Counted from the first letter of the stretch, positions 1-20,000 are shown. The stretch: DNA of 20,000 nucleotides from an uncultured virus (IMG/VR IMGVR_UViG_3300028048_000131) (IMGVR_UViG_3300028048_000131), one strand, 5' to 3'. A program made the numbers and translations. The notes: a model not told the origin generated them from the sequence alone.

Positions 1-445
1 AGCTGTTCATCATCAAAAACGTCTATATCAGCTACGCTAATAAGATTGTTCCGTCATAACTCTATGTAACTACAGACACTATAACAGGGATCTGCTTGAT
101 CCTCCACTACAGATTAGGACTTGCCATAGGATTCCTGCCGAACTAGGGATTACCTCCTCTATTGACAGGTCTGGCCATATAGGATATTTCTCCAAGACTT
201 ATTATAATAGCTGGAGTAGTTCCCTAATATCTCTTGTCAGGAGAAAACGCACATCCGACTTTTACACAGTCCTTATTGAGATTCCCTTTTGGATCATACA
301 TAAGGGAGACCAGTCTCTAATCCTTGATGTTCCGACTGTCGGCAAAGAAGTTGTTAAGAATATCCTTTATGTACTTGACAACCCGGCTCTGCTGTCCGAA
401 AGCATCAGGAAGAGTACTTTTTTCTGTATAATCAGTAAGATTCAT
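1..445 (-). CDS. Virion protein, possibly tail terminator/completion-like (runs off window; TAG-recoded)
   Basis: ATG at 445 overlaps the upstream TGA (ATGA). The frame stays open to base 2 with 7 TAG (317, 224, 143, 107, 62, 32, 23) and no TAA/TGA: MNLTDYTEKSTLPDAFGQQSRVVKYIKDILNNFF...TTPAIIISLGEISY...LLA*LI*TFLMMNS. Function inferred from position and general resemblance. Confidence 0.7.
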
Positions 446-1266
446 TCAAAGGCCTTCTTCCACTAGTCACCGCTTATGAAAGCTTCCTGTAAAACCTGTT
501 GTGCTCTTGGAGTGTGAAGCACGTCGGAAAGCTCTAATAGGTGCATCTTCAACTGATATATAAGCGGCACATGCTTGAATTTGGAAGCTATATCAGCTTG
601 CTCTATATAAAACCGCTGATCAGTGTTATCATCTACCCAGACATCCCCGAGTTCTATAATGGGCCAGGCTGTACACTTAGCCTGTAGTATCACAGATTTG
701 GTGCTCCCTATCTGCTGTATACCCTAATTGGAACTCTATCCTACCTATAATATATTCATAGGAATAGCTCTGTAATAGCCACCCTTGATGCCTGTTCCAA
801 GACACACAGGACAGTGCTAGTTCACAGGAGAGTCATCCTAGAAGTGCATACAGGCAGGGCACTTCTAGCCATAGATGATCTTCTTCATAAGATATCCGGT
901 GCGGCCTGTTTTCTACATCTAAAGCTAGCTGAGACGAATAAGATTGCTTGCCTAGGAACTATATGGATAGCTCAGAGTGATCCCTGCCTGCTGGGGCTAA
1001 GAATAGTACTGCTGACCGTCCGCATTCATTCTAACTCTGTAGTAGTCGTTATTGTATTTGTTGCGGTTGGTTCTTCTATTATCTATATAACAATAGCTTA
1101 CAGGCAGGCCCTCTGCTAAAGTCTACCACGTTCCACCACTGCGAGCATATTCTACTGACAGTAAAGTGTCCTAAGGCAGTGTTATTCCTGCGTCGAACTA
1201 CCAGGAGAGCGCCCTTGAATTATTGGCCAATATAAATACTTTTAAAGCTTTGAACGGACTGGACAT
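442..1266 (-). CDS. Putative neck/head-closure protein with CxxC...CxxCxGxG zinc finger (274 aa; TAG-recoded)
   Basis: ATG 1266-1264 overlaps the upstream TGA (TGATG) and the gene ends TGA at 442. Contains G*KCPACMHF*DDSPVN*HCPVCLGTGIKGGYY, includes track ORF 463..693, and has more than a dozen internal TAG and no other stop. Confidence 0.75.
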
Positions 1267-2171
1267 CAATGCCACCAGCGCTAAGTACTTTCAAGATAGA
1301 TATCAGAGATGCTTCCCATACACTCAAGCATATTCAGCTAGCTCTTTTTAGTCTGCACCCAGCTTTTCCATTCTTGCAGGGCATTCTGAGCGAGCTGCAT
1401 GTACATCTGTCCCTTGTCATTATCATCGTAAGTGAGACCTGCGTTGGCATGTCTCATCTGGTTTCTCATATATCTGTAAGAAGCCATCTTGAAGAGATAA
1501 CCCGAAGCTCCTGTGCAAAGGTTGCTTCTAAAAGGAAAAGTAGAAACAGTAAGATTCCTGGAAAGCTGAGGAGGCATCTAGTTCCAGTCCTGTACTGCGC
1601 GGTCCATGCATCTGGCAATAACGATGTCTGAGAACTAAAGGTCATTGAGGAGCTAGTTCTGCTGGCCTGAAGTGTCATACATCTACATTCTTACCTAAGC
1701 AATGGTAAGCGGCCTGAAGCCACAAGGGCACGGACTCGCCAGGGAATGCTCTATCTAAAGACAGCATTTAAAGATATGTCTGAGAACTCCGTCCTAGTCC
1801 CTGCACTGGAACTAGGCATAGTGAAGCCCCTAATTGCATTCAGTCTGCTAAGGGCCCAGAGAAAAAGTTACTTTTCCATTACCCTGATACTAACAGGGAA
1901 CTTCAAAAATATAGCAGCCTCTGTTCTAAGCAAGACACGCCAATTTTACATTATCAGTAGAATATAACTCTGCGGGAATAGTTCCCTACAGATCTTGTGT
2001 AAGCTGTACGATAAAGTCCGCAGTAAGTCCTGCAGTAGTTCTTATTACAGGCACTCCATAAGAAGAAGCTGCATGTCCGGTGGCCGCTTGGGAAGCCTGC
2101 CCGTCGGCGCCTCCACCGCCCCCAATACCGCCAGCTCCTGGAGTTGCTTCAGGTATGCAAATATCAGCCAT
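1266..2171 (-). CDS. Putative head-tail adaptor/neck protein (301 aa; TAG-recoded)
   Basis: AGGAGG RBS before ATG 2171. Track ORFs 1986..2171 and 1338..1577 are in the same frame and join through 15 TAG, ending TGA at 1266. Motifs PLTIA*VRM, LLDNL*FSD, QDWN*MPP. Function is inference. Confidence 0.75.
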
Positions 2172-2407
2172 TAATTAATCCTCCTGTGTGCAAATAAAGG
2201 CATAAACATAAAAGCAGCACATATACAAATAGTTATAGGCCAGCCATATCCTTTTTGTTCTGGCTCAGGATCCTTTAGATCTGCTGTCTTCTTTGCGGAG
2301 ACTTCTACTTGTACAATAGTCGCAGGTTCTTCAGCATGGCTCTATGAGGTCTAAAAAATACACCCGCATAGGCATAGGCAAGTCAACAGCAGACACAATA
2401 AGCGCAT
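2171..2407 (-). CDS. Small lipoprotein with C-terminal transmembrane segment (u-spanin-like topology; 78 aa; TAG-recoded)
   Basis: MRLLCLLLTCLCLCGC (lipobox-like LCGC) IF*TS*SHAEEPAT...GYGWPITICICAAFMFMPLFAHRRIN-TAA. TGATG overlap upstream and TAATG overlap downstream; TAG at 2351 and 2342. Confidence 0.65.
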
Positions 2408-2697
2408 CATTTATCCTTAAGTTGATCTTGTATATCTTTAAGAACCGAAAGCAGCTGTGTTTGTAAAGGATCAGGGGGCAGCGGGCACTGATTAAAAGTT
2501 CCATCGGAGTTGCAGCACGGGAATCTACTGCGGCGTTCCTGACAGAGTGCCTCGGAGACTTTGTCCGTAAGTTTATTGTCCAGCGTCATGAACTTGTTTT
2601 CCAAGTGATCAAGGCGCTTGGTGAGGAAGGCTATAAGCCAGGCGAAGCCTCCTAAGATGGCTGCCACAATTGATATGACCTGAACTGAAGTAAACAT
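2407..2697 (-). CDS. Single-pass membrane protein, holin-like candidate (96 aa)
   Basis: N-terminal hydrophobic helix (VISIVAAILGGFAWLIAFL) then a coiled-coil-like segment. AAGGA RBS, ends TGA, directly upstream of the lipoprotein gene. Confidence 0.6.
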   Translation of the reverse strand: MFTSVQVISIVAAILGGFAWLIAFLTKRLDHLENKFMTLDNKLTDKVSEALCQERRSRFPCCNSDGTFNQCPLPPDPLQTQLLSVLKDIQDQLKDK

Positions 2698-2739
2698 GCT
2701 GTTCCTTATATAGTTTCTTTATAAAGGGGGGCGGGTAAG

Positions 2740-2769
2740 TTGAAGTTTGAAGGCTGTGGTGTAAGTTAT
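2740..2769 (+). promoter_or_regulatory. Sigma70-like promoter (TTGAAG-N16-TAAGTT)
   Basis: Same spacing and GRTG-TAAGWTA context as the promoters at 3345 and 3480; lies just upstream of the AGGAGG RBS of the 2785 gene. Confidence 0.5.
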
Positions 2770-2784
2770 GGAAAAGGAGGAATT

Positions 2785-3348
2785 ATGAAGAACTTCGAAG
2801 AGTACATCTTGAGTTACACAGTGCAGCCTATAGCAGGAGTTTCTACACTAAGAGGAGTTAAAGCGGACCTGACAGTATCACTGCCGCTATTCTATAAAGA
2901 CTATAGGGAGGAACACCCTGATAGCACTGAAACAGAGGCTATAGAGGCTTTATGGAAGCTTGTGGATAAGTGGTCTAAGGAGAATCATATAGAAGAACTC
3001 GGATGTACATTGCAGGCAACGGACGAAGAAACGGAGAAAGTTAGAAGAAGTGAGACAAAATATTTGAAGAGTCTCGAGGAATATATTATTCCGGAAGATC
3101 TTAAGTCAGGACAGTTGCCACACACTTTGGCTAGGTATGACTACTATACAATGGTGAAGGATTATATGGCAGAACATCCAGAAGCGGACTCCAGGCAGTT
3201 ATTGCGAGACCTTATGCAATTTACCTCAGGGACAGGAAATCCCAGAACTATGTTAAAGGCCGTGGGGGATATATCTGATTCAGAGTCTCTGGTAAGTTTT
3301 ACTGTATATGAAACAGTGGGTTATAATAAAGGGTCTTTTCTGGCTTGA
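2785..3348 (+). CDS. Hypothetical protein (187 aa); C-terminus weakly resembles the GatB/YqeY tail domain
   Basis: AGGAGG plus 4 nt then ATG 2785 is a better start than TTG 2740. Ends TGA with no internal TAG. Segment MVKDYMAEHPEA...LLRDLMQFTSGTGNPRTMLKAV. Confidence 0.75.
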   Translation: MKNFEEYILSYTVQPIAGVSTLRGVKADLTVSLPLFYKDYREEHPDSTETEAIEALWKLVDKWSKENHIEELGCTLQATDEETEKVRRSETKYLKSLEEYIIPEDLKSGQLPHTLARYDYYTMVKDYMAEHPEADSRQLLRDLMQFTSGTGNPRTMLKAVGDISDSESLVSFTVYETVGYNKGSFLA

Positions 3349-3374
3349 CAAAAACAGAAGAAGATGTAAGATAA
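3345..3374 (+). promoter_or_regulatory. Sigma70-like promoter (TTGACA-N16-TAAGAT)
   Basis: Perfect -35 TTGACA at 3345-3350 and TAAGAT at 3367-3372; GATGTAAGATAA is repeated exactly in the 3480 promoter. Confidence 0.65.
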
Positions 3375-3412
3375 TAGTACAAGAGGTTGGAGCCGCCTAC
3401 TTCTTGGCACAA

Positions 3413-3473
3413 GTGACCCTTCTGCGGTCCTCCAGAAGAGAGCTTCGGGCGAGGTGCCCGGGCAGAGGGCCAT
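3413..3473 (+). ncRNA. Candidate small structured RNA (three-way junction)
   Basis: GC-rich island between two promoters. Pairings: GTGACCCT/AGGGCCAT, TCTG/CAGA and CGGGC-GAGGT-GCCCG; loop sequences CCTC and GAGG are complementary. No family recognised. Confidence 0.3.
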
Positions 3474-3479
3474 TTAAGG

Positions 3480-3509
3480 TTGACTTTTAGGTACAGTGAT
3501 GTAAGATAA
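3480..3509 (+). promoter_or_regulatory. Sigma70-like promoter (TTGACT-N16-TAAGAT) upstream of the amber tRNA
   Basis: TTGACT at 3480-3485 and TAAGAT at 3502-3507; same -10 context as the 3345 promoter. Confidence 0.62.
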
Positions 3510-3636
3510 AATATGAGCAGCCACTCCGGAGGGTTGTGAGGTTCCTGAAAAGGAGCTGTCCGGAAGTTCTTTGAAAAGCGCTTATGAAAGATATAAAGAG
3601 TTTTCATAAGTCGTTGCTAATAAAGCATTTATAACT

Positions 3637-3710
3637 GCCCGGGTCGTCTAAAAGAAGGATACTGCGCTCTAAACGCGGAGATTGGATTGCAAAATTCCAG
3701 CCGGGTACCA
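3637..3710 (+). tRNA. Amber-decoding tRNA, anticodon CUA, on a tRNA-Glu-type scaffold
   Basis: 74-nt cloverleaf with encoded CCA. Acceptor GCCCGG(G)/(G)CCGGGT-A73, D-stem GTCT/GGAT, anticodon stem CTGCG/CGCGG with loop CT-CTA-AA (anticodon 3669-3671), 4-nt variable loop AGAT, T-stem TGGA(T)/(T)TCCA. Has U11-A24, U13.G22, A46 and no position 47. Confidence 0.9.
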
Positions 3711-3720
3711 AGCAATTTAC

Positions 3721-3782
3721 AGAGGGCTAGAGAGTGCAGCTCGAAAACCTGTTCCCTAGCAGGCCGCCCTCTTTCTTTTTTC
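3721..3782 (+). terminator. Stem-loop plus T-tract after the tRNA (terminator/attenuator in the endonuclease leader)
   Basis: AGAGGGC (3721-3727) pairs with GCCCTCT (3766-3772), followed by TTCTTTTTT; alternative inner GCTAG/CTAGC pairing. Confidence 0.5.
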
Positions 3783-3812
3783 ACCTAGGGAAGTAACAAT
3801 AGGGAGTTATTT

Positions 3813-5015
3813 ATGACACCACAAGAAGCCTGTAATTTTCCACTCGATCTAGAGAATCATTATGGTTACGTATATTGTGTAACCTTTCCTTCCAGTAAAA
3901 AGTATATAGGACAATCCAAGCGTCCCTGGAAATACCGTTGGAAGTGTCACCACTCGGATACATCGTTTTGTCCTGCAATGAAAAATGCCTTGCAAAAATA
4001 TAATACAGAAGAGCTCGTCTGGGAACTTTTGTGTTATGCGGATTCTCCACAAGAATTAACGGATAAGGAAACTTATTATATACAAAAACTATCCACACTC
4101 GCTCCTGGAGGATACAACATTTCTCTTCCTTGTAAGGCTTATCCATACCCAGAAGAAAAAGCAGATAGGATCCGGTTAGGTCTTGCTCTACACCATTTAC
4201 GTAAGACTAATTCTGACGCTACTATAGAAGACGCCAAATATTATATTGCACACAAGGACGACAAGCCTCCTAAATTAGAGAAAGGCTCTCCGGAGTGGAT
4301 AGAGAAGTATAGAATAGCCACAGAAAAAAGAAGAGCTACTATGCAGGCGCGAGGTAAAAACATGAGTGATATCATGAAAAGGGTAGCTAAAGAAAAACCA
4401 TCTATGAATCAAGGAATGTGTGTAGCTCTTATAGTATATGAAACAGGCGAGCAGTTCGAATCCATAGCGGATTTTTGTAATAAATATAACGTTATAAGTT
4501 CTTGCGCATCCTTTTGCTTACAGAAGAAGAATAAAGAAATAGGCGGAATGCATATCTACCCGGCCTCCTGTACTCAAGAGGAATTGCAAGAGTATATAAA
4601 GTTCTGGAATGAGCCTAAAAAAGTTCCTAAAGGTATTCTTACCTGTGTTGAGACAGGCAAAACTTATAGAACGGCTAAAGAAGCAGCGGACGAGCTCTGT
4701 GTACTAAGAAGCAGGATCCACATGGCAACAAGGCGTAATTTACCTGTAAATGGATTTCATTTTATATATGCCCCGGCTGTAGGCGTAAATCCTAATGGTG
4801 GAAAGTCTGTTAAGTGTCTAGAAACCGGTAAGATCTATACATCCCAAAGGGAGGCAGCTAGAGATATACTAAAGGTAACAGACGAGGGGAAAGCCAAGGC
4901 AGGTGCAGACCAGATAAAGAAAGTTATTGAAGGCTCACGTAAGGACTTCCATGGATATCATTTTACTTATGTGGCTACAGGTTCACCCTTAACAATTTCT
5001 CAGGAGCTCCTCTAA
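3813..5015 (+). CDS. GIY-YIG homing endonuclease with three C-terminal NUMOD1-like repeats (400 aa)
   Basis: GYVYCVT...KKYIGQS...RWKCH...WELL...ELTDKETYYIQ...GGYNIS. Repeats VYETGEQFESI, CVETGKTYRTAKEAA and CLETGKIYTSQREAA. GGGAG RBS, ends TAA, no internal TAG. Confidence 0.9.
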   Translation: MTPQEACNFPLDLENHYGYVYCVTFPSSKKYIGQSKRPWKYRWKCHHSDTSFCPAMKNALQKYNTEELVWELLCYADSPQELTDKETYYIQKLSTLAPGGYNISLPCKAYPYPEEKADRIRLGLALHHLRKTNSDATIEDAKYYIAHKDDKPPKLEKGSPEWIEKYRIATEKRRATMQARGKNMSDIMKRVAKEKPSMNQGMCVALIVYETGEQFESIADFCNKYNVISSCASFCLQKKNKEIGGMHIYPASCTQEELQEYIKFWNEPKKVPKGILTCVETGKTYRTAKEAADELCVLRSRIHMATRRNLPVNGFHFIYAPAVGVNPNGGKSVKCLETGKIYTSQREAARDILKVTDEGKAKAGADQIKKVIEGSRKDFHGYHFTYVATGSPLTISQELL

Positions 5016-5575
5016 TGCTCTCCAAAGAAGATCTTCATCAGATGGCACGCATGTGTAGCTTTCCACAGAGCCCCTTTGTAGTTTTTCTTCGTCGTCTTTC
5101 TCATAACCGCAGCAAGAAGTGCATTCAGTATAACAATCGTTGCTATACTGTAATATACAATACACACTCTAAACGGGTTACTTTACTTCCTTCAGAAGAA
5201 CCTCTCATTGGTCCTCCGTCTCCCTTTAAAAAGAGAAGAAGAATAGATCATGACAAGCACACAAAGAAGCGCCTCCTTCAGCGCTTTAATATAGAGGCTT
5301 CCGACGAAGATCTTAAACAGATGGCTTCTATGTGCTCTACTAAGTACTGCCATATAAAACTTCCCTTTAAGTCTGCATCTCAAAAAGAGGGTCGGACCAG
5401 AAACCTCATACACTTTAAAGACCGGGATATGCTTGCTGTATATGAACCGGAAAGCGACAGTATTATAACTGCTATGCCTACCGAATATATGTTTAAGGAA
5501 GAGCGAGAATGGCTGTACTGTTCAAAACGAGTAAGATATAAACAACTGCTGAAACATACAAAGGCCCTTCAATGA
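5015..5575 (+). CDS. Hypothetical protein with an internally duplicated domain (186 aa)
   Basis: TAATG overlap with the endonuclease gene. Repeat units SKEDLHQMARMCS / SDEDLKQMASMCS and YTVIYNTHSKRVTLLP / LAVYEPESDSIITAMP. Confidence 0.75.
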   Translation: MLSKEDLHQMARMCSFPQSPFVVFLRRLSHNRSKKCIQYNNRCYTVIYNTHSKRVTLLPSEEPLIGPPSPFKKRRRIDHDKHTKKRLLQRFNIEASDEDLKQMASMCSTKYCHIKLPFKSASQKEGRTRNLIHFKDRDMLAVYEPESDSIITAMPTEYMFKEEREWLYCSKRVRYKQLLKHTKALQ

Positions 5576-5811
5576 TCCTCTCCAAGCTCCTCAAAGCTCT
5601 CTCCACGCTGTTTCTACTATTACTTTCCATAGTACTGGCAGGGCTTTCAATCCTAATTTCTGTTATAATTTTTCTGTATTACCCTATACTGCTCCTGTTT
5701 ATTACACCCTTCATACCTATGCTTATGTTCTTATGGTATGTAGATAAGCGCTTCACAGTATTGGAAAAAGAAGAACAACAACTACAAGAACACTTAAAGG
5801 AGACAAAATGA
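5572..5811 (+). CDS. Small membrane protein (79 aa)
   Basis: ATGA overlaps at both ends; long hydrophobic stretch (about two TM helices) and a charged tail. Confidence 0.75.
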   Translation: MILSKLLKALSTLFLLLLSIVLAGLSILISVIIFLYYPILLLFITPFIPMLMFLWYVDKRFTVLEKEEQQLQEHLKETK

Positions 5812-6122
5812 AACTGCTTAACTGCCCCTTCTGCGGAGCCCGCCCTGTTTATGATGAAGAGAATCAGACTGTGCACTGCCCTACTGTAGATTGCGCTATC
5901 GGGGATTTCTATATAAATCCTGAAGAATGGAATAAAAGGGCCCTAAACAACAAGCTTCTGCTGAAGTATCTGTTTGATACGCAAACAGTATATATAGGAG
6001 CTGAATTCGATCTGGTCCAGGAGCATATATGCCGCTGCTGCGGAAGATCTGGTAAAAAATACTCAAAAGTGAATCATAAGAGGGGCTGTGAAGTTAAGAA
6101 GCTCCTGGACTTGATATACTAA
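5808..6122 (+). CDS. Lar-like (restriction alleviation family) zinc-ribbon protein (104 aa)
   Basis: KLLNCPFCG...VHCPTVDC...EEWNKR pattern typical of the Lar family; AAGGAG RBS; ends TAA. Confidence 0.65.
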   Translation: MKLLNCPFCGARPVYDEENQTVHCPTVDCAIGDFYINPEEWNKRALNNKLLLKYLFDTQTVYIGAEFDLVQEHICRCCGRSGKKYSKVNHKRGCEVKKLLDLIY

Positions 6123-6137
6123 AAATTGGAAGCATAC

Positions 6138-6719
6138 ATGAGAGTGTGGAAAGATATACCTTCTATACCTGATTATCAAGTAAGTTCTGACGGAAAGGTT
6201 AGAAGAAAAGAAAGATATTCTGTTTTTTACGCCAAGAGAATGGGAGGAAGAACAGACAAAGTATCACTAATAAAAAGACACCAAAAAGCTAAAGAGCTAA
6301 GAATACAGTCGTGTTTTGTGTACCCCTCTGTTTCTATTAAAGATAGAATTCGCCAGGTACATAGATTGGTAGCTCAAGCATTTATTCCAAACCCATAGAA
6401 CAAACCTTGTATAAACCATAAAGATGGGAACAAATATAATAGTTGCGTGGAAAACCTAGAATGGTGTACCTACAGCGAAAATGAATTACACTCACACAGG
6501 GTACTAGGTAAGAAAAGTAAGCCTATGACGTAGCAGACAAAGAGAAAGGCCCTGCAAGTTAGAAAAACGAATTACCTTAGTAGATGTCTGGCACTTTTAG
6601 GAGAGAAAGAAACTACTAAGAAAACTAATACGCAGCTTGCTTTATAGCACGGCGTGAGTCGAAGAACAATACAGCAACAATTAAAAGATGCAAAAGCATC
6701 TAGAAAGGAGACAAAATGA
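6138..6719 (+). CDS. NUMOD4-HNH homing endonuclease with C-terminal HTH (193 aa; TAG-recoded)
   Basis: WKDIP..PDYQVSSDGKVR (NUMOD4), then [41 protein letters not shown] (HNH), which continues past TAG 6396. Further TAG at 6531 and 6645; ends TGA 6719 in an ATGA overlap. Confidence 0.9.
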
Positions 6720-6865
6720 GTGAACAAAAAGTTTGCGGAAAACGCACCGAAGTTTACTCTCGATAACGTATCTGTGGCTACTATCGTCCCGTTACCAACT
6801 GGAACCAGGGAAAGCGGGAAGAATTTAAAGATCGTAAGCTCTATAAAGTAAATGCCCCATCCTGA
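6716..6865 (+). pseudogene. Stand-alone NrdD C-terminal glycyl-radical domain interrupted by an in-frame TAA
   Basis: MSEQKVCGKRTEVYSR-TAA-RICGYYRPVTNWNQGKREEFKDRKLYKV matches the NrdD C-terminal YSRxxGYxRPVxxWNxGKxxEFxDR motif. Strong AAGGAG RBS; TAA at 6764-6766. Confidence 0.7.
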
Positions 6866-7277
6866 TACATTCTAGTACATTCCTAAGCCGGGTAACGGTT
6901 ATGTGTACCACATAACCTCCGGCAAGAAACATTATATAGGTATCTCCACTACACCCTTCTCCAGAAGATGGGAACGCCATAAAGCTCCTGACTCAGGCTG
7001 TACAAAGCTTGTGAAGGAGCTTAATCGTCTTCGGGCTACAGGCAACTGGGCCCAACTTAATGTATAGATCCTCAAAGAAGCTCGTAATGCCCAGCTTGAC
7101 AAGCTGTAGAAGAAGTACATAAAGAAGTATGCTTCTTATAAGAGCATCTACGGAATGAACTCCACTCCGGGAGGTAGAGATGTCACTCCTGCCTCTATGC
7201 ACATGAAAAAGCTCTTCAGGAGAACTAAAAGGAAGATTCAAAAGACCCAGGAAACTTTTTCCTGGGACCTTATATAA
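6852..7277 (+). CDS. Small GIY-YIG nuclease (141 aa; TAG-recoded, catalytic Glu position encoded by TAG)
   Basis: GYVYHIT...KHYIGIS...RRWERH...LNV*ILKE...QLDKL*KKYIKKY...YGMNSTPGG. TAG at 6873, 7065 and 7107; ends TAA. Missing from the ORF track. Confidence 0.88.
7240..7266 (-). terminator. Rho-independent terminator for the minus-strand 8323-7270 genes
   Basis: CCCAGGAAA/TTTCCTGGG stem (7246-7266) followed on the minus strand by TCTTTT, 3 nt after the TAA at 7270. Confidence 0.6.
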
Positions 7278-7650
7278 ACTTCTTCAAGTACTCTATGGCC
7301 CTTATTATAATATTAGGCTTAGAAGTTCTCTACCACCATGAAGGACCATAAATAAGCTTCTTGCAATGCTTTTCCACAAAGCAGTCGATACACCTGGTTC
7401 CCACCATATTACTCTAAGGAACTCTTTTCTTGCAGACACAACATCTACACTGCTTATTTTGAAGCTTCTATTTAAGAAGCTGCAGATACTTGTTTATTTC
7501 CCCATATACCAGCTATTGATAGTAATAAATAGGCAGCCCTTTGCTGGTTATATCAATATGGTCCGGCTAGATCTAAAGAACATGCAGGATACGCCGGATC
7601 TTACTCTAGGAGACATTGTAGTGGGCTGCCATTTGAGCCCTGGTTATCAT
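7270..7650 (-). CDS. HTH plus CxxC/CxxC zinc-finger protein, putative regulator (126 aa; TAG-recoded)
   Basis: MITRAQMAAHYNVS*SKIRRILHVL...CRCCVCKKRVP*SNMVGTRCIDC...RAIEYLKKFI-TAA; TGATG overlap at the start. Confidence 0.7.
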
Positions 7651-7820
7651 CAGAAAACAAACTTATGTCCAATTACACAGCCAGCTATAAAAGCAGCTGC
7701 AATAGCTAGAATACTTAGACCGAACAGCCAGTAATTGTTTTTATTTATAATATGACGGCTGTTGATAAGAATTTTCTACAGTTCCTGTAATTTTTCGCTG
7801 TCTGTCATTTTGTCCCTCAT
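7650..7820 (-). CDS. Small membrane protein (56 aa; one TAG)
   Basis: MRDKMTDSEKLQEL*KILINSR...YWLFGLSILAIAAAFIAGCVIGHKFVF-TGA; ATGA and TGATG overlaps. Confidence 0.65.
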
Positions 7821-8323
7821 GCGTATATCAAGCTCCATCCAGTGGGAGCTTCTGTTACATTCTGATAAGCCATATATCTGGAAAGCTATATGGTATAAAT
7901 ATTGTCGTTGCTGATAGTTAAAGAATCTGTCTATACAGAGTACATGGCCCCATTGTTTGTTATAAGATCCACAGGGCGTCTCTTATTCTTTGTAGGTGTA
8001 AAATAGTACTTGCCCCCGCCGCCATCGACTACATTCACAATAGGCTCTCTGTAAGTAGCCACCAAGTCATACTGATCTGCAAGCTCCGAGACATCGAGAA
8101 CATTTATAAGATCTGCTATAGTCAGAATATGTGGCTTGTGCTTTATAAAGGAAGGCAAAGAACTGTCAGAGATATCCCAATCAGCAACATAGTTCATATA
8201 GTAGCGCTGATTAAGATGGTTCCAGTACATCTAACCTGTTTGTGTATTAAGCGCAATATACTAGGACAGCCCGTTTGTAAGCATGTCCAATCTCTATGTA
8301 TTGCCTGTGAAAAATTTAAGCAT
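7817..8323 (-). CDS. Hypothetical protein (168 aa; TAG-recoded)
   Basis: GAGGTG RBS before ATG 8323. Extends track ORF 7931..8230 through 5 TAG (8294, 8261, 8231, 7931, 7886) to TGA at 7817. Confidence 0.7.
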
Positions 8324-9167: not shown

Positions 9168-9217
9168 AAAATACTCCTTTCTGAGTTGTTGTTTATGTAA
9201 ATGTATATGTACAAGGC

Positions 9218-9249
9218 AAAAAATAAAGCCCGCAGATTTCTCCGCGGGC
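9218..9249 (-). terminator. Rho-independent terminator after the major capsid gene
   Basis: Minus strand reads GCCCGCGGA-GAAA-TCTGCGGGC-TTTATTTTTT. Confidence 0.8.
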
Positions 9250-9272
9250 CTTACTTACCGATCAGATATTAA

Positions 9273-10295: not shown

Positions 10296-10315
10296 ATTTC
10301 TTATTCCTGTGTTAT

Positions 10316-10334: not shown

Positions 10335-10349
10335 TTTTGTTTACTTAGA

Positions 10350-10937: not shown

Positions 10938-10949
10938 TTTTTATTCCTT

Positions 10950-11357: not shown

Positions 11358-12661
11358 GCCTTCTTGGAAAGAACTTTCATCAGGTTCGCGCCGCGGCGGG
11401 TAGAAGCCAGCTTGACAAGAGTCTGCTGACGCGCATCTTTGACAGCTGCATGATAAGCAGCCTCTTTTCCCATATCTTCAGCAGGAGCTTCTTCCTTAGC
11501 AGGCTCTTCAGCAGGTGCTTCTGCCGGAGCTTCCGGAGCAGCTTCTCCACCTTCACCTTCCATCTCAGCAGCAACAGCCTGAATTACTTCTTCAGGAGAG
11601 ATGCCCTGCTTGGCAGCTTCATCGAGAATCTGCTGGGCCTGGGCCATGTCTTCTTCGGAGGGCTCTTCATCGCCTTCGCCGGCTCCCATCAGTTCCTGGG
11701 CAGCTGCTTCAAGCAGCACTTCAGGTTCGACACCCATCTGTTCAGCAGCATCAACAACATCGCTGACAGCCTGTGCAATATCATCACCGGAGACCGGCTG
11801 ACCGAGCATTTCAGAAACCTGAGCAGCTGTTTCATCGAGACCATCCATAAAGGCAGCTTGTTCCTGTTCGGCACCAGCCAGATCAGAGAGGGCTTCGCCT
11901 TCAGCTTCGGCCTGTATTTCGGCGGCAGCTTCCGGATCCTCTGCAACAGCCGCATCAAGTGCAGCAGCGGCATCTTCCGGGGACATTTCATTTTCAGCTG
12001 CAAGGGCATCAATTTCAGCAGCCTGTTTTTCCATCAGCTTATGTTCAACTGCAATATTGAACAGCGGATTAGTTTCCTGCAGCTTCTGGAAAGAGACCTG
12101 GATATCGCTAGCAATTTTAATAAAATCTTCTTCAGATTTAACATCATTCAGAGAAGCAATCTTATGCAGAACTTCAGTAGCGGTAGTAACTTCTTCTTCC
12201 TTGGCGGAAGCTTCTTTCTTCAGCTGTTCTTCTTTGGCTTTTTCTTCAGCTGCTTTCAGGGCAGCTTCTTTAGCCATTTCAGACTTTACAACAGATTCGA
12301 TCCGAGTACGGAAAGCAGCGGATTTGACTACTTCCGCCGGGGTACCGGCAGGGGTTCCGCACGGGTACATTTTGTCAACAGCAGTACCGGTTTCAGCCAG
12401 TACTTTTTCAGCCTTCTTGTCATCATCGCCTTCGATCTTCTTATCAGCGATTTCAACAGTGCCTTTCAGTTCGGCATCAACAGATTTGTCGGAAGCATAA
12501 TTGCCCTTAGTGGCAGACTCAGTTTCCTTCTGCATCTGATCGCCAATAGCAGGCTGTGCAGCATCCAGCTGCTTGTGTGTAATTTCCTGTGCTTCTTTCT
12601 TCAGGACACCGGCAGCATCTGCAAGCGCCATGAGATGAGCAGCTCTTTTACTAATTCCCAT
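11354..12661 (-). CDS. Acidic Ala/Glu-rich scaffold protein (435 aa)
   Basis: Very acidic and helical, located between the protease and capsid genes; more than 60 Glu, all encoded by GAA/GAG; many K-x-A-[AS] motifs. Confidence 0.7.
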   Translation of the reverse strand: MGISKRAAHLMALADAAGVLKKEAQEITHKQLDAAQPAIGDQMQKETESATKGNYASDKSVDAELKGTVEIADKKIEGDDDKKAEKVLAETGTAVDKMYPCGTPAGTPAEVVKSAAFRTRIESVVKSEMAKEAALKAAEEKAKEEQLKKEASAKEEEVTTATEVLHKIASLNDVKSEEDFIKIASDIQVSFQKLQETNPLFNIAVEHKLMEKQAAEIDALAAENEMSPEDAAAALDAAVAEDPEAAAEIQAEAEGEALSDLAGAEQEQAAFMDGLDETAAQVSEMLGQPVSGDDIAQAVSDVVDAAEQMGVEPEVLLEAAAQELMGAGEGDEEPSEEDMAQAQQILDEAAKQGISPEEVIQAVAAEMEGEGGEAAPEAPAEAPAEEPAKEEAPAEDMGKEAAYHAAVKDARQQTLVKLASTRRGANLMKVLSKKA

Positions 12662-12696: not shown

Positions 12697-14217
12697 TTAA
12701 GGGTTTACCGTTCTGTAACGGGCCAGTTTCTGCATGGCCAGATTACAGGTATCTTCACTATTACGAGCAGCAAAACTCAGTACATATCTTGCATAAGTTC
12801 TGCGGAACTCCTAACCAACCAAACTTGCTGTTTTCTAAATGTCCTCCTTCTCCTTTTCTTCTTTTTCAGTCTCCTATTTCTAGGATTCCTTCTAAGGTTC
12901 CTTATCGGACTCTTTGAGTTTCTCAACAAATTCTTTTTTATTGTCTTCTGTTTCCTGCTTGCCGGGAGCTCCCAGATGGATCTCAATACGAATAGATCTT
13001 CCGTTGAGAGCCGGTCTGCTGATACCCATATCAGGTACGAAGCTCTCCAGAACATTGGCAAGATTCAGATCTGCAGGAAGGGCTGTATCAAAGCTGCCAT
13101 CCAGCATATGCCCTCTGAACTGAGGATCATTTTCCATGTCCTGCATGAGATGCTCACAATCGCAGGGGCAGTTATCAGCGAACATGTCAAAGAAAGCCTT
13201 TTCGGGAGACTCCTTCCCCATCAACTTAAATAAAGCTCTCGGGGAAAGCAAGATAGCTTTTCTATTACATTGATCAAGAACTTCATCGGCATCAAAATTC
13301 TATACCGCGTGTAGAAAATCATCTTCTACATTCTTGTCATCTACAAACAGCGGATCATCCTAAGTCTTACAAAGAATCTCTTTCTAGATCTTAGAAAGCT
13401 TTGAAAGAGTAGCTGCAATTTTATTAAAAGAGATAGAAGGACGGAATCCGTTCATAAGGTACTTAGAAGAAATTGCTTCCTAAGCCTTTTCCCCAGAAGC
13501 GACTTTTCTAAGCACATATGCCATAGTGTCTGCAGGAACATTCACACCGGAGATATCATAGAACTTAGGATTATCATTGATCATGGCCACTCTGGTACCG
13601 TCTTCAAGAAGGAGCCCTGCATGTTTCTTAATGTGCTAGCAGTGCTCATCAAGAGTGTGCGCACGATGCCCACATGCGGTACAGGCGTCCGTTTGGACGG
13701 TACAGCCAATAGAAAGGAAAATGTCCTGTCCAGAGGCTCTCTTATGAAGACGCTCCGCCCACTTATCTGCATCAACTTCTATAAGAAGCTATCCTCTGTG
13801 CATAGGTTCGTTATACACAGCCGCCTTTACAATACCGGAAGGAGCTTCGTCTGTACGATGCTCTTGATATACATAAGCTCCATCAAGATATGTCTTATGA
13901 CAGTTCTTCAATCCATCTCCCACATGCACTGTAAGAGAAGCTTCTTTTGCAAGAGGCGGATGGAAGTCATAAGGGCCTTCATTATAAGCATCGTTATTAC
14001 GATTGGGACCAAATACTTCAGAGGCACATGTAGTAATAACATGCAGATAAGCTTTCTTTTCGATAGGCTTCAGCTCTTTGATTTCTTTTTCAAAGGCTGC
14101 TGCCCGTTTCTGCATAGAAGCTGTCTTATCGAGCCCTCTGGAGCTCACTTTGAGGATCTCTACAGGAGTATCTCCACGAAGGTCCTATGAATTGGGAACA
14201 ATTGTTTTATATAGCAT
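12697..14217 (-). CDS. Probable prohead maturation protease (506 aa; TAG-recoded)
   Basis: Track ORFs 13789..14148 and 12892..13251 are one frame, from ATG 14217 to tandem TAA TAA at 12697/12694. Motifs FGPNRNNDAY, VYQEH, MHRG*LLI, LSIGCTV..DACTACG...EHC*HIK and FYDISGVNVPAD; lies ahead of scaffold and capsid genes. Confidence 0.75.
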
Positions 14218-14218
14218 A

Positions 14219-15952
14219 TTAGTTGCCTTTCCCAAGAAGAACATCCTGCTGATATCTTTCAGGATGTGCGGCATAATACTGCTGCAAGGACTGCAGTAAA
14301 GCTGCTTTCTGTTTAGAATCCAACTGATTCAGAGAAGGCTTGCCTTTAAACTTAAGCTGTGTACCTGCGCGACGGACAGCTTGAATATTTGACTTATTGA
14401 GAAGATTCTTTTTAACAGTATCCTGGAACTGCTTAATATAAGCTTCAGTAGCTTTGACTTCTTCTCTGCGACGAGCTTCGTAATCTTTTTCCTACTCCTA
14501 CTTATCGGTCTTGATCTTATCCAGAACAGCATCAAAGTCTTTACCAAGATCTTTTTCAAGCAGCCCGTGAGGAGCCACATTGGCAAGTGCCCCGGAGATA
14601 GAAGGAAGAACTTCCGACAGGCTTTTTCCTTTGGTCTCTGCCTAAGGTTTCTTGGAGGCAACTGTTTCAGGAGCCAGTTCTTTACGCTTCTCCTCTGTCT
14701 AAGTAACCTTCTTAAGAATGTCCGCAGTAGCAGCAAGGTCCGCTTTATTGGTGCGATTCCCTGCAAGCAGTCTGGAAGCTACTTCAGCTTTCAGATATTC
14801 ACGCATACGAGGACTTGCCATATCCTGATTAGTGGCAATAGTATCTTCGACAGCTTTTTCGATTTCAGCTGCAGGATACTGGGCAAAATCAGGATTGGCC
14901 AGCATATCGATAAGACGCATGCGTTTGTCCTGATATTTATCCTTGCTGAGAAGCTAAAGAGAAATAGCTTCCTACGGAGAGTATCCTTTAGAGGGATTCA
15001 GAAAAGGGGCGGACTGCCCGAGGATACTTTCGGACTGCCCAACCACTCCCTTCGTACCCGCTAACAGCGCATTTACAGGAACACTTACAGCATTTGCTGC
15101 AATGTCCTTCAACATAGTATAGCCAGGCCCTACAGCTTCTTTACAGAGGGCTAACTTTTTCAGCTTGCCTTCGATCTCCACAGCTTCTTTAGCCATTCTG
15201 CGAACACTTGCAGTCTTCATCATAAGAAGATCTCTCTTGGTGTCCACTATATCGGACTGCTGAATGGTCTTCTCAACGTACTCGACAACAGGAGACTTTG
15301 GAAGGATAGCATAAGCTGCGTGCTTCTTCAGGGCCTCCTCTGGAACTTTCCCTGTAAAGAGCTTATTATAAGTATCTCCATAAACAGTTGCCAGAAGCTT
15401 TGCTGTTTTAACATCGCCAGAGAGCATTTCAGCTGCACGCTTTACCATCCGTTCCAGCTGCTAGTTTTCCCGAAGGAAAGTATCGTGCTGTTCCTGGAAA
15501 GCGGCTTCTTCTTTGATCATATAATCTTCGAGTCTCTGGAGGAGCTGCAGAGGAGTGACTTCCTTGACAGGCTGTTCCTGCTTGGGAACTGAAGCGGCTT
15601 TTTTAAGTTCGGCCTTATGCACTTCAAAGACAAAAGGAGTGTTTACAGAAGCTGCTTTGGAAAGACCTTCTTCACATCCTCGTATAGAAGCTACTTTATT
15701 GAAGTCCGCCAGAGGAAAGTCCTCGGCCTTTTCACTTTCAGGGCGCTTACCGATAGTAACTACAGAGATCCTTCGATTGAAAGCCTGTGTAGCTGTCTTG
15801 GTCAGCTCCTTGGGAACATTGGATTCTGTGAGCTGTTTGGCGAGAATCTCACTTCTGTCCTGATCGGAGGCCAGCGCCATAGAGGCTGCCTTCTAAATAG
15901 CATCCGTGAGCTTGAATTCAGTAATTCTGTCCAGTTTTTTCAGGTCTTCCAT
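14219..15952 (-). CDS. Large helical putative head-internal protein (577 aa; TAG-recoded)
   Basis: Track ORFs 15461..15880, 14972..15448 and 14699..14920 share one frame separated only by TAG. Runs from ATG 15952 to TAA 14219, 1 nt from the next ATG; many K-x-A-[AS] motifs. Confidence 0.78.
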
Positions 15953-15953
15953 A

Positions 15954-16832
15954 TCAGGCCTTTTCCTCTTTATGTGTAATTTTCTATATTACCTAATTAG
16001 TGGGATCGTTTCCGGTAGAAGCTGTGATTTCGACTTGAGTATATGTACGTACGCTGGCATCAAGTCCGGAGGCAATAGTGTCCATCAAGCCCTCCTGGCC
16101 CTAGGAAGTATCCTGCTTATTCTAAAGAATAAATGCATGATCCTCGCGGTTTTTCATAGCTTGCTACATTGACGATACATATATCTAGATAGGCACGTTA
16201 AGATTCTGTGCCATATAATCGAACAGTTGTTTGTTTCTGGCATCTCTCCACATAGCCTACATAGCTTCTTTGGCACTTTTCCCGGAGTTACCGAAGCGGA
16301 GACTGTGCAGAGCTGCTTCCAAAGAGTGATAGTGAGCAAGTGCTCTGGCTCTGAAGAGGTTCATAGACTTACCCTGTCTGGCAGGCTATAGAAGCATCTG
16401 CTAGAACCATTCGGCAATTCCCTGCACTCCCTGAAGATCGCAGAAAAGATCTGCATACATCTTTGCCTGTACAGGTGAGAGCCATTTAAGCTTCTGGGAA
16501 GTTTTCTAAGGAGTAAGTCCGTATATGATACAGGCCTATAGAGCAGCTTTCAGCTGGGAGCTGTTATCCATGCTTCCCAGCATCATAACCTGCCAGGCAT
16601 CCGGATACTTGGCTCTAATGAACTATCTGCTGGAAAGATTCCTGCAAGCTCTTTGTATACGGGCAAAATAAAGAACTATGGGCTAGTAAGTAACCAGACA
16701 CGCTTTATCTTTCATGTCTGACAGTGCAAGCTTCTGTGCTTCCTGCCAGCGCCAGTCCGGGGCACGCAAAAAAGAGTCCCGAGTGAACTCAGGGCTCTTT
16801 TTGAAAGGTGCTTTTTCGTTACTTACAGGCAT
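15954..16832 (-). CDS. Hypothetical protein (292 aa; heavily TAG-recoded, absent from the ORF track)
   Basis: AGGA RBS and ATG 16832: MPVSNEKAPFKKSPEFTRDSFLRAPDWRWQEA...LKAAL*ACII...N*VI*KITHKEEKA-TGA. About a dozen TAG; exactly fills the gap between its neighbours. Confidence 0.75.
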
Positions 16833-16845
16833 TGTTCCTAGGCCA

Positions 16846-18939
16846 TTATTGCATCATCGTGCCCGTCTGCAGGTCCCCGGCATCAGGACTTTCACCGGTA
16901 CCAAGACTTCTAAGTTTAACGAATATAGTCAGCTAAGACAAGTCCTTAATAGTATTCTGCAGCGACTTTTCCAGTGCTTTCATCTTTACTGCGCCGTAGC
17001 GCTCTTCAAGGTCCTGCATATGGCATCTGTACATGAAAAGCATCTGGCAGAGCTTATCCAGAGTCTGCATGAAGTCAGGTACGATGTCCATAATGGCAGC
17101 ACCCGGATCAGCTTCCTGCATAAGGAGCTTGAACACAGATACATCGAAAACTTCCTTTACACCAGCTTCAGTAGCTTTCTGTACAGTATCAACTATCTGA
17201 TTGCTGTCTTCCAGTGCTTTGTTCTGAAGATCTTCGGTAGTTACTTCCGGGGGTTCTTCAGTAGTTTCAGTCATACTGATATCTGCAGGTTTCCATGCAG
17301 TGGAGTCGTCTTCCTAAGAATCTCCGATAAGCTCAGCTTTCTTATGCAGCAGGAAAGTAGTGGTATAAAGCTTGCCAATCTCCCCTGCGCCAGCCATTTT
17401 AAGCATAGTCTTTGCATCCTGAGGACAAATACCATAGTTCTTCACCAGGTGCAGACAAGCTTCTTTTTCCATGAACCGATCAGAGGGCTTGGAAGCAGGC
17501 CCGTAGAAAGAAATCTCCTGTCCATCGGAAGTCATTTTGATCTTAGTGGTGGACTTATTGATGAATCTTTCAATTGTTCTGCCAAGATCTGCAATTCCAA
17601 CATACAGCCCCTTCGAGGAGGCTTTCTCATTGGAGATAAGAATCACACGGGTACCCTGCGGGACTTCAAGAACTCTGTCATATTGCAGAGAAGATCTCAG
17701 TTTATCGTCCTAAGACTCTTTGATAGTCATATTGTAAGAATAGAAAGATCCGTCTGAAGAGGACTTGGAAAATCCTCCGCGAACTTCCAGAACAGCCCCG
17801 GAGGGCAGTACCAAAAGAAGATCACTGTAGTTAGGATCTGCAGAAGAGAACTTTTCACCAAGATCTTCCGGCTTCAGTTCCTTGATAGTATCCTTGATAG
17901 CCGTAACAGCAGGCACTTCAAAGGCTTTGCCGTCCTTGATAATATAGGACTTGAACCCACCGTAGTGCTTCATCTCATCCCTACCATCCACATAGAAAGG
18001 ATCAGAGGTATATGCGCCTTTCAGTCCCCACGGGCTCTGTCCTTTGATGGGATTGGCAAGAACGTAAGTAATGTCTTCTGTATCTCCGTTACCCATCAGT
18101 ATCTAGCACTTACAGGAAACTTCAGGAGTTACGAAAGCATTGGTAAGGTTCTTCTTTTCGATTACTTTAATGGAGCTGTCACGGTCATCCCAGTCAACTT
18201 TCTAAGCTCTCTTGATTACATATCCGTCTTTCCAGAGAATCTTTTTCTGATCATCTGTAAGCAGAGAAGCTCTCTTGTCCATAACTGTAATCAGTTCAGT
18301 TTCAGGATCATCAGGATACTTTTCACAGGCTTTCTTGGCAAATCCCTTAATATCCTACGGAGAGTAGAATTTGAAGGTTTCATTGATAAAGTCCGTATTG
18401 CTGAGATAATCCATGAACTTAAGAGCAGCCTTTTTGCCCATCTTAAGAACAGTATCAAAAACGGTGGTTTCCTTAAAGGAAGCATTCTTCAGAACAGGAT
18501 CGATAGGCTCTCTTGAACGGGCGCTGCCGGGGGTCTTGCCATAAAGGTTGGCATCTTCAGGAGGAATAGATTCGGCTCTGCCGACATCGTTTTTATTCTT
18601 TACCCAGTTCAACCAGGCATCAGACAGCGGCAGGAAAGTCTGCAGACCGGGAACTTCCATGATCTCATCGATGTAGATCTTGCCATTCTGGAACACAGCA
18701 GGAACATAAACAAGGTTCTCGCCCAATTTATAAACAACAATACAGACAGCGAAAGAATTGTCGTCGTTCTTATCGAGAAGCTGAACAGCTACCTGATAAT
18801 CGCTCAGGCTGGGGTATTTATCCGTGATCTGCGCATTTGCCAGAATACCAAACTGCTGTTCAAAAGAAGGCCCCTCCCCAGGTTCACCTTGGGCCTTTTT
18901 ATACAGGGTGCCTGCTTCAACAATTAATTTCTTTGACAT
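16846..18939 (-). CDS. Large putative virion/head-internal protein (697 aa; TAG-recoded)
   Basis: Track ORFs 18355..18939, 17710..18096, 17314..17646 and 16933..17274 are in one frame joined by TAG; ends TAA at 16846; K-x-A motifs throughout. Confidence 0.8.
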
Positions 18940-18963
18940 CTGCGTGTTCCTATTTAAGTTGCG

Positions 18964-20000
18964 TCATTTCGCTGGGTTATAAGGTTCTACAATGATTTTA
19001 TCGACAAAGGAAGGACTGTCGTATCTATCTGTTATTCCCTTCCTTGCAGCATCGAACAAAGTGTCTTTAAGCCGCTCTCCGCTAAGTCTCGGAAGCCAGT
19101 TCTTGTCCTGCATGACAAACTGCTTGGAAGAAACAAACTGAGGTTCGAATGGAGGAGGCTGCGGATTGGTCACTATAGATGTAGTGCCGTATTTCTAAAG
19201 CTTCTTCGCTACAGAAGGAGTTATACGAGTTCCTATACTGTAATATAAAACAGGTTTCTACAGGTACTTGCCAATGGAATCTTTCAGAGAAGTTTCCTTG
19301 CTGTCGTCTCTGGGAACCCACTTGTCGAGGATGTCATCGTAATCGACAAGATCCCCCGGATAGTAACCGCCAAATCCATCAGGGTCTGTAATGCGGACCT
19401 TATTTATCATAGCTCTGGAGAACTCTTCAAGGTTTCTTCTTAAAGTGCCTGCTCCGGTTTTTGGAAGGATCTCGGAAAGCTTCTTGGTAAAGTAATGGCG
19501 GCCCTCTCCTATGCCTTTATATTTTACAATCTACATAGGATTAGGTACTCCATTGGTGAGCATATCGCCAGCTTCTACCACGTCACCGACTTTAACTTTC
19601 ACTGTACGGGCTACTGGAGAATATACAGTAGAAGTGCCTACAGTTATGTAGTTGCCGCCCTGAGGAGCTTTGCGGATCTAAGTTACACGTCCATCTGTAG
19701 TTGCCAGTACAGCGCCCCCTGGAAATACTTTAGGAGCAAGTAGCATACGCTGCACAGAATCAAAGCCTGTCGGCTGATCAGAGCCTTCAACGTCTTCATG
19801 ACGAACTCCTCCCATGCCGGAAGAGTGCTTGGACGATATACCCGACTGCGTAAGAGGCTCAATAAAGCTCTTTACAGAGTTCAGCGCTACATAAGAACCT
19901 ATTGCAGGGAATTTCCCATTTTCCTGTATTCCTGCACATCTGGCACAAACTCCATTATGTGCCTTACAAGTAACAGGACTGCGAATGATAAACTAGTCCT
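18964..20000 (-). CDS. Phage multisubunit RNA polymerase beta'-like subunit, C-terminal part (TAG-recoded)
   Basis: D*FIIRSPVTCKAHNGVCARCAG (RpoC Zn site RS..C-x6-C-x2-C), FIEPLTQSGISSKH (trigger loop), VKVGDVVEAGDMLTNGVPNPM*I, LSGERLKDTLFDAARKG. TAG at 19993, 19678, 19531, 19258 and 19195; ends TGA. Confidence 0.88.

Follow-up and report, generated by a model that had tools for sequence, protein, structure and literature searches.

The available part of the Borges et al. preprint reports, for phages whose genetic code differs from that of the host, only the reassignments of TAG to glutamine (Gln) and of TGA to tryptophan (Trp). The explanation given there is that glutaminyl- and tryptophanyl-tRNA synthetases (GlnRS and TrpRS) accept suppressor tRNAs; phage synthetases are stated there to be rarely found. 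TAG is treated as Gln in the accessible portions of Cook et al. (2024) and of the phAss-1 paper, and the 2026 jumbo-phage survey, in the text available, uses code 15. Suppressor isotypes in the accessible section of the theta-ribozyme paper are Gln 69%, Trp 19%, Ile 10% and Tyr 1%, with no glutamate (Glu). Gln was shown by mass spectrometry in two crAss-like phages (Peters et al., 2022, partial text), and some TAG codons that align with E in the Lak paper (partial text) were read as GAG-to-TAG changes under a Gln code. Here we describe a 20,000-base stretch of DNA, called the window throughout, from the uncultured virus IMGVR_UViG_3300028048_000131, which appears to depart from this pattern. 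Judged from sequence, the phage probably (at roughly 0.85) uses a private code that reads TAG as Glu and stops only at TAA and TGA. The original prediction had called such a phage code previously undescribed, and this holds for the literature searched: apart from supplements (the tRNA isotype tables of PMC10879173 and the supplements of Borges et al. might list such suppressors), it contained no phage paper reporting TAG as Glu.

The DNA of the window comes from a cattle-gut metagenome and represents one section of a phage genome of about 190 kb. Its last 127 bases are identical to the end of a 106,679-base IMG/VR contig (G001; CheckV completeness 57%), so that 126,552 bases of one phage could be joined. 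Coverage of the joined DNA by open reading frames (ORFs) of at least 100 amino acids was 0.61 under code 11 and 0.88 when TAG was read through; only this codon gave a sharp rise, the values for read-through of TGA and TAA being 0.69 and 0.71. A greedy set of 144 ORFs contains 502 in-frame TAGs (1.3% of codons); 68 of the ORFs are free of TAG and 66 end in TAA. With TAG read through, 24 gene-sized frames appear in the window, and 13 of them hold 101 in-frame TAGs. Eleven of these frames are on the minus strand; the other two, 6126-6719 and 6852-7277, are on the plus strand. The earlier statement that genes on both strands are broken by TAG is therefore correct, but its count of 14 is not; the fourteenth candidate, 3687-5015, has a single TAG, upstream of the likely ATG at 3813. 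As had been predicted, no confident gene ends in TAG: the 23 genes with their 3' end inside the window stop at TGA (14) or TAA (9). Homology also runs across the in-frame stops, since tblastn alignments to standard-code relatives span 165 TAG sites.

These relatives were found through the capsid protein, which has 112 homologs in a large protein collection; an alignment of 36 of them retrieved six near-complete IMG/VR genomes and 57 metagenome loci. One of the genomes, G002 (192,052 bp, with terminal repeats), belongs to a human-gut clade, has a capsid protein 71% identical to that of the window and is itself TAG-recoded, with 1236 in-frame TAGs and a rise in coverage from 0.58 to 0.87. The other five (G003-G007; 164-179 kb, capsid protein 40-48% identical) use the standard code, with a coverage of 0.87-0.90 under code 11. 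Thirteen metagenome loci (L102-L114) are recoded and the other 22 loci of at least 7 kb are not.

To read the residue at TAG columns, ORFs were translated with X at TAG and compared by tblastn with G003-G007, the best alignment being counted once per site and genome. The 165 TAG sites gave 687 cells (E 221, D 86, K 49, gap 42, N 40, Q 37, S 34, A 33 and others). Expressed as shares of the 645 residues, E accounts for 34.3%, D for 13.3%, K for 7.6% and Q for 5.7%. As a control, the phage's own Glu codons (GAR) in the same alignments face E at 33.7%, D at 13.4%, Q at 7.7% and K at 7.1%, and its Gln codons (CAR) face Q at 27.2% and E at 11.5%. With substitution frequencies taken from the alignments themselves, E was the best assignment by log-likelihood, Q falling 213 nats and D 250 nats behind; BLOSUM62 conditionals also assigned TAG to E, by 164 nats over D, and gave every other codon with at least 15 cells its standard meaning. 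Because the reference genomes are related to each other, residues were also counted by site. At the 33 TAG sites where at least four references aligned and agreed, E was found 23 times, K, A and a gap twice each, and Q, N, F and D once each; the invariant control sites gave E at 76 of 112 for GAR and Q at 51 of 92 for CAR. ORFs that start in the window contribute 82 TAG sites, a set that includes five past base 20000 in the polymerase gene, one straddling the end and one in a spurious antisense ORF; 24 of the 82 are invariant, 16 with E and none with Q. In genes 442-2171, 30 TAG sites align to the standard-code relatives and nine of these have E in all five.

Several individual motifs had been put forward as Glu-consensus sites, and they fared unequally. 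D[TAG]FIIRS (19993-19995) has E in all five standard-code relatives, and NPM[TAG]I (19531-19533) has E in three of them but D in the other two. In the HNH family, whose 120 homologs range far wider than this phage group, E is the plurality residue at both alignable TAG columns, the third column being mostly gaps. FIPNP[TAG]NKP faces E 55 times and Q nine times; at LAL[TAG]HGVS E leads with 23, but K (19) and Q (6) are also present. The TAGs of the acidic run at 12835-12894 face only gaps or K, and the run thus provides no evidence. Overall, the expectation that TAG columns in homologs would be Glu and not Gln is borne out.

Codon composition points the same way. Among ORFs of at least 100 codons, the per-gene fraction of GAR falls with that of TAG (slope -0.88, r -0.44, p 2e-7), while the slope for CAR is +0.07 and not significant, and GAY and AAR are unchanged too. 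TAG-free genes have 7.6% GAR and 3.3% CAR; genes with at least 4% TAG have 3.05% and 4.0%. For each TAG gained, roughly one GAR codon has given way. If TAG is translated as Glu, both Glu and Gln stay within the normal range. If it is translated as Gln, the content of Gln rises from 3.3% in TAG-free genes to 9.4% in TAG-rich genes and that of Glu falls from 7.6% to 3.05%. The composition argument of the original prediction is thereby upheld for ORFs of this length, and its counts for gene 1266-2171 (15 TAG, 8 GAR and 17 CAR in 301 codons) are exact.

Glu was also the outcome in other recoded relatives. For G002, 835 of 2512 cells were E, and E was the best assignment by 645 nats; for L104 and L114, E was preferred over Q by 218 and 97 nats respectively. 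We therefore regard Glu over Gln as supported by three independent kinds of sequence evidence: Glu at the TAG columns of five relatives, depletion of GAR and not CAR, and agreement from two further recoded lineages and from the HNH family.

The underlying DNA sequence was checked against contigs, not raw reads. Bases 400-2695 and 2790-4000 of the window are matched by identical contigs, without a single different letter, in one DNA run, which is probably the source, and in two RNA-Seq libraries, both of the latter from another sample and study; the matched 3.5 kb includes 32 TAG codons. Since RNA libraries can contain DNA, this does not prove transcription, but identical contigs from independent libraries rule out a mistake confined to a single assembly, and they show no trace of editing.

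The features of the window, with TAG read through, are as follows.

2-445, minus strand: TAG-bearing gene without a family name, 7 TAG
442-1275, minus strand: TAG-bearing gene without a family name, 15 TAG
1266-2171, minus strand: TAG-bearing gene without a family name, 15 TAG
2171-2410, minus strand: TAG-bearing gene without a family name, 2 TAG
2407-2697, minus strand: TAG-free gene (0 TAG), in block 2407-6122
2740-3348, plus strand: TAG-free gene (0 TAG), same block
3637-3710, plus strand: tRNA gene with anticodon CUA, which reads UAG (ARAGORN -mt; Rfam tRNA 28.0 bits)
3720-3790, plus strand: structured RNA followed by a T run, terminator-like (Rfam int-alpA 39.9 bits, gathering threshold 35.8)
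3813-5015, plus strand: GIY-YIG homing endonuclease, TAG-free (PHROG homing endonuclease match)
5015-5575, plus strand: TAG-free gene (0 TAG), in block 2407-6122
5572-5811, plus strand: TAG-free gene (0 TAG), same block
5808-6122, plus strand: TAG-free gene (0 TAG), same block
6126-6719, plus strand: HNH endonuclease, 3 TAG (Pfam NUMOD4, HNH_3)
6852-7277, plus strand: GIY-YIG gene, 3 TAG (Pfam GIY-YIG)
7270-7650, minus strand: small TAG-bearing gene, 7 TAG
7817-8323, minus strand: small TAG-bearing gene, 5 TAG
8445-9167, minus strand: TAG-free gene of the capsid block, 0 TAG
9273-10295, minus strand: major capsid protein, TAG-free (PHROG major head protein; the protein with 112 homologs)
10350-10937, minus strand: TAG-free gene of the capsid block, 0 TAG
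10950-11357, minus strand: TAG-free gene of the capsid block, 0 TAG
11354-12661, minus strand: Glu-rich gene of the capsid block, 66 GAR and 0 TAG
12697-14274, minus strand: TAG-bearing late gene, 12 TAG
14219-15952, minus strand: TAG-bearing late gene, 8 TAG
15954-16832, minus strand: TAG-bearing late gene, 13 TAG
16846-18939, minus strand: TAG-bearing late gene, 6 TAG
18964-19998, minus strand: RNA polymerase beta'-like gene that continues past the window, 5 TAG inside it

TAG is absent from two sets of genes, 2407-6122 and 8445-12661. The second, the capsid block, is TAG-free despite being structural and contains 137 GAR codons; it seems that the recoded codon is avoided in the proteins produced in the largest amounts. 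Three homing-endonuclease genes lie within 3.5 kb on the plus strand (GIY-YIG at 3813-5015, HNH at 6126-6719 and GIY-YIG at 6852-7277). On G001 (L008:7687-16779, plus strand), a fused beta/beta' RNA polymerase of 3030 amino acids with 47 in-frame TAGs is split by inteins and LAGLIDADG endonuclease domains (Pfam Intein_splicing, LAGLIDADG_2 and LAGLIDADG_3). The same contig encodes a GNAT protein, an HD-domain protein and methyltransferases. Among GenBank phages, a 7.3-kb query had no blastn match and tblastn with the RNA polymerase found only relatives of at most 31.5% identity. Searches for related loci with single proteins returned only the record of origin, and a scan of a genome collection with the capsid protein gave only two short, distant contigs from metagenome-assembled genomes (Bacteroidales and Acholeplasmataceae), which is no usable clue to the host.

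The tRNA gene at 3637-3710 was overlooked in the original prediction and is the key part of the proposed mechanism. It comprises 74 bases with an encoded CCA, an anticodon loop CUCUAAA, a 4-nucleotide (nt) variable region and unusual T and D loops. Genes 2740-3348 and 3813-5015 are separated by 464 bases, and the tRNA gene sits in this gap on the same strand as the TAG-free block. The int-alpA match begins 10 bases after the tRNA, just upstream of the GIY-YIG gene, and its outer stem and T run resemble a terminator. In one RNA run (X3), the contig over the tRNA region had a depth of 10.1 against 2.3-5.8 in its neighbours, a measure that cannot show expression. A tRNA(CUA) gene also lies near the capsid gene in G002 and in nine of the 13 recoded loci (L102, L104-L108, L110, L112 and L114), and the other four (L103, L109, L111 and L113) show only the 3' exon of the tRNA. 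There is none in the 22 standard-code loci of at least 7 kb or in G003-G007. Across the relatives, the presence of tRNA(CUA) thus goes with recoding.

Three types of tRNA(CUA) were found, namely those of the window, of G002 and of L114. In G002, the gene (90597-90924, minus strand) stands beside a tRNA(CAU) in the region near the capsid gene, and its anticodon loop is split by a 252-nt intron that aligns with the whole of the Rfam Intron_gpI model (31 bits, E 5e-6; gathering threshold 50, thus not reached). The same split gene is present in five loci (L102, L106, L107, L110 and L112). L104, L105 and L108 carry an intron-less gene, which is identical to the spliced sequence in L104 and L105 and has one additional D-loop base in L108. 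L114 has a third type with odd D and T loops. All three types share the loop CUCUAAA, the pair U11-A24 and U13.G22, and differ in the acceptor stem, the anticodon stem and the loops. A similar intron copy at 9121-9417 of G002, at the end of a 462-amino-acid ORF and beside a TnpB-like ORF (9572-10702), was rejected as a tRNA intron because it is not inside a tRNA. Low-threshold ARAGORN calls at 75721-76085, 104529-104996 and 17936-18030 of the joined DNA were likewise discarded as poor cloverleaves inside coding sequence. Numbers of tRNA genes vary among the relatives: G003 has 22 of its 23 in a 6-kb cluster (22427-28458), G004 lacks them altogether, and in the recoded G002 the suppressor is accompanied by just two tRNA(CAU) genes. 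A tRNA-like element on G001 (11975-12057, plus strand; L002 1501-1583) scores 36.2 bits with Rfam tRNA and is not called by ARAGORN. It has perfect acceptor and T arms, almost no D arm, a loop CUUAUAC (anticodon UAU) and a 24-nt extra region able to form its own 6-bp stem.

The identity set of the E. coli glutamyl-tRNA synthetase (GluRS) comprises U11-A24, U13.G22..A46, the absence of residue 47, G1-C72, U2-A71 and U34 U35 C36 A37. The window tRNA has U11-A24, U13.G22, A46 and the 4-nt variable region, and in its D stem it is identical to E. coli gltT. It departs from the acceptor and anticodon part of the set, with G1.U72, C2-G71 and C34 U35 A36, and agrees there at no more than U35 and A37. 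In the G002-type tRNA the variable region has 6 nt, the 5' half resembles tRNA-Trp, and the T arm and acceptor stem resemble one bacterial tRNA-Glu. In BLAST searches against phages, the window tRNA matched only a Gordonia phage tRNA-Gln (E 0.05) and the G002 type a mixture of Asn, Arg, Trp and 'TERM'. The BLAST typing was uninformative, and the likeness of the window tRNA to tRNA-Glu is not specific.

If host GlnRS and TrpRS explain the Gln and Trp codes, a Glu code needs another charging route. G002 encodes a TAG-free protein of 356 amino acids with a Glu/Gln synthetase catalytic domain (Pfam tRNA-synt_1c, 142 bits). Its best NCBIfam model was gltX_bact (203 bits, below the cut-off of 290), and GlnRS models scored far lower. 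The class I catalytic domain carries what we take to be HIGH-like and KMSKS-like motifs. The predicted structure (predicted local distance difference test, pLDDT, 90.5) aligned to Thermotoga maritima GluRS (residues 24-486, a 463-residue chain) with a VIA Z of 32.1, over 351 of 356 residues, at a root-mean-square deviation of 2.6 Å. We had considered that the protein might lack the anticodon-binding part, but Pfam misses this domain and the fold covers the whole of GluRS; the enzyme is thus compact, not truncated, and a divergent member of the bacterial GluRS family. It falls into a set of 13 clusters of 354-385 amino acids that stands apart from cellular GluRS (239 to 154 bits). An alignment of short GluRS proteins found no close member in IMG/VR besides G002 (80 loci kept, the rest at most 48% and mostly at most 37% identical), and the compact gene was not found in any of the five standard-code relatives. 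Genes of the RF-1/RF-2 family were not found in G001-G005.

We suggest that tRNA(CUA) would be transcribed from the TAG-free block before the TAG-bearing genes are needed, that it would be charged with Glu, and that it would outcompete release factor 1 at UAG. Such suppression would delay or gate the TAG-bearing genes, as has been proposed for phages with TAG as Gln. In the human-gut clade of G002, the TAG-free compact phage GluRS is the obvious candidate for charging. In the phage of the window this role might fall to the host GluRS or to a phage GluRS encoded in the approximately 78 kb that were not recovered, a pattern from the left end of the window having found no match in IMG/VR; the missing part corresponds to 93.7-171.7 kb of G002. 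At somewhat less than even odds, we tentatively extend this to a lineage of gut phages of about 190 kb, in cattle and in people, with a TAG = Glu code, tRNA(CUA) of at least three builds and one clade whose compact GluRS would form a natural orthogonal pair with it in a standard-code host.

A number of observations weigh against the glutamate reading or against parts of it, and are taken up here with the alternatives on which they bear. The alternative that survives best, although we consider it unlikely, is that TAG does encode Glu but is decoded by something other than 3637-3710, either a tRNA of the host or one that the phage encodes in the unrecovered 78 kb. The Rfam score of 28.0 bits is just under the gathering threshold of 29 (E 8.8e-4, 491 bases searched, full model). 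Standard ARAGORN misses the gene, only its -mt mode finding it, and calls no tRNA in the window or G001. Neither the T loop nor the D loop is canonical, the acceptor stem has a G.G mismatch at its base, and no close copy was found in 151 Bacteroidota genomes. Three further points weigh against the main reading itself. The D-helix set shared with E. coli tRNA-Glu occurs also in Trp, Thr, Gln, Gly and Asp tRNAs of a small and biased reference of 87 tRNAs. In a BLAST search of 300 bacteria with small genomes, all from one phylum, tRNA-Trp was the most frequent type matched by the G002-type tRNA, with 14 of 28 typed matches (Thr 7, Leu 2, Lys 2, and Gln, Glu and Gly 1 each). No GluRS gene was found in the 126.5 kb recovered of the window's phage. 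In favour of 3637-3710 as the decoder, it folds into a full cloverleaf with an encoded CCA and the same CUCUAAA loop as the tRNA(CUA) of the relatives, and it is intergenic, in the matching region near the capsid gene. The L114 gene also has odd D and T loops, yet is called by standard ARAGORN.

That TAG is a sense codon of mixed meaning (Glu with Gln or Glu with Asp), or that it specifies a modified or non-standard acidic residue, is improbable. Conservation shows only the standard residue that fits best, and D is second-best; the three tRNA(CUA) scaffolds differ and their charging is putative. Two limits apply to the main reading itself. The cells of the residue table are not independent, the five references being mutually related, and amount to 165 sites, not 645. 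Structures of bacterial RNA polymerase (PDB alignment, beta part) are uninformative, TAG facing K, R or D at variable positions. Against a mixed or non-standard meaning, TAG and GAR columns have nearly equal profiles in both E and D, without the excess of Q or D that a mixture would give, and E leads D by 164-250 nats under the two scoring schemes.

Ordinary code 15, with TAG as Gln and the Glu signal arising from single GAG-to-TAG changes tolerated as Glu-to-Gln replacements, is very improbable, although it has precedent: in the texts available to us, the phage TAG recodings in the literature searched are all to Gln, and the Lak paper explains its E-aligned TAGs in this way. It could also draw on the pairing of codons between the two recoded phages. 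TAG of the window phage faces TAG in G002 84 times, CAG 32, GAC 21, GAA 11 and GAG 11, and the probability that the window phage has TAG is about equal for GAA, GAG, CAG and GAC in G002, a result that gives no support of its own to Glu. The other direction is clear and speaks for Glu: TAG of G002 faces 10.6-12.9% of the window phage's GAA/GAG but only 2.2-2.6% of its CAA/CAG. We read the asymmetry as near-saturation of the Glu sites in G002 late genes by TAG. CAG is abundant in G002, 56 of 597 GAA codons of the window phage pairing with it, and Glu-to-Gln replacements seem to be common in its clade, apart from the question of TAG. A related strain (run X5) has one CAG-to-TAG change beside an indel; on this 298-base contig seven TAG codons are unchanged and 11 of 16 changes are synonymous. 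Among database proteins, the nearest to the HNH endonuclease is P0233 (84% identical), in which Q stands at two of the three TAG columns while the next relatives have E. These Q residues may be a stored table-15 translation, in which case they are circular, and such records would bias residue counts towards Gln. What decides against Gln is that Q at TAG columns is rarer than at true Glu codons and far rarer than at Gln codons, that it occupies one of the 33 invariant sites against 23 for E, and that TAG-rich proteins would become as rich in Gln and poor in Glu as calculated above, most conserved Glu residues having turned into Gln.

An artefact, whether G-to-T consensus errors made systematically at GAG or chimerism of the assembly, found no support and can practically be dismissed, since the independent contigs keep TAG, GAG is still common, nearly half of the ORFs of the same DNA (the 68 noted above) lack TAG and the pattern recurs in 14 more recoded relatives (G002 and 13 metagenome loci).

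If TAG is Glu in these phages, table 15, which annotation tools use for such genomes, misassigns 1.3-2.1% of all codons, and at least 5% in some late proteins, so that many conserved positions receive an uncharged residue in place of a charged one. The distortion would extend to homology searches, to structure prediction and to metaproteomic databases, where the mass difference of 0.984 Da between Glu and Gln resembles deamidation. It would also mean that the choice of amino acid for reassigned phage stops is less constrained than proposed, and would break the rule that phages change only TAG to Gln and TGA to Trp by way of host GlnRS and TrpRS. The compact phage GluRS and its tRNA(CUA) are a candidate natural orthogonal pair for amber-to-Glu decoding.

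The closest described systems are the code 15 phages (crAss-like phages, Lak, the phAss-1 group and the Borges clades). As far as the available parts of these sources go, they resemble the present phage in having TAG in late and structural genes, TAG-free early blocks, TAA and TGA stops and a phage tRNA(CUA), and their tRNA genes can carry introns. They differ in that TAG was assigned to Gln by alignment, by tRNA isotype calls and, in two crAss-like phages, by metaproteomics, whereas the TAG columns here are Glu. With respect to the amino acid, the nearest precedents are eukaryotic. In table 30 (peritrich ciliates) UAG is Glu, as proposed here, but TAA is Glu too. In table 31 (Blastocrithidia) both UAA and UAG are Glu. 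In contrast to these tables, which reassign TAA, the phage uses TAA as the stop of nine of 23 window genes and of 66 of 144 ORFs. Both are cellular codes and not those of a virus overriding its host, and the phage code does not descend from them or share their origin. Cyanobacterial tRNA-Leu and tRNA-fMet are familiar cases of a group I intron in the anticodon loop; the intron of G002 occupies the same place, but its host gene is an amber suppressor, and the tRNA(CUA) of the window is intron-free. Finally, phage gene sets for code change combine a suppressor tRNA with a release factor or a synthetase. G002 likewise pairs its tRNA(CUA) with a TAG-free synthetase, which is, however, a compact GluRS and not a GlnRS or TrpRS.

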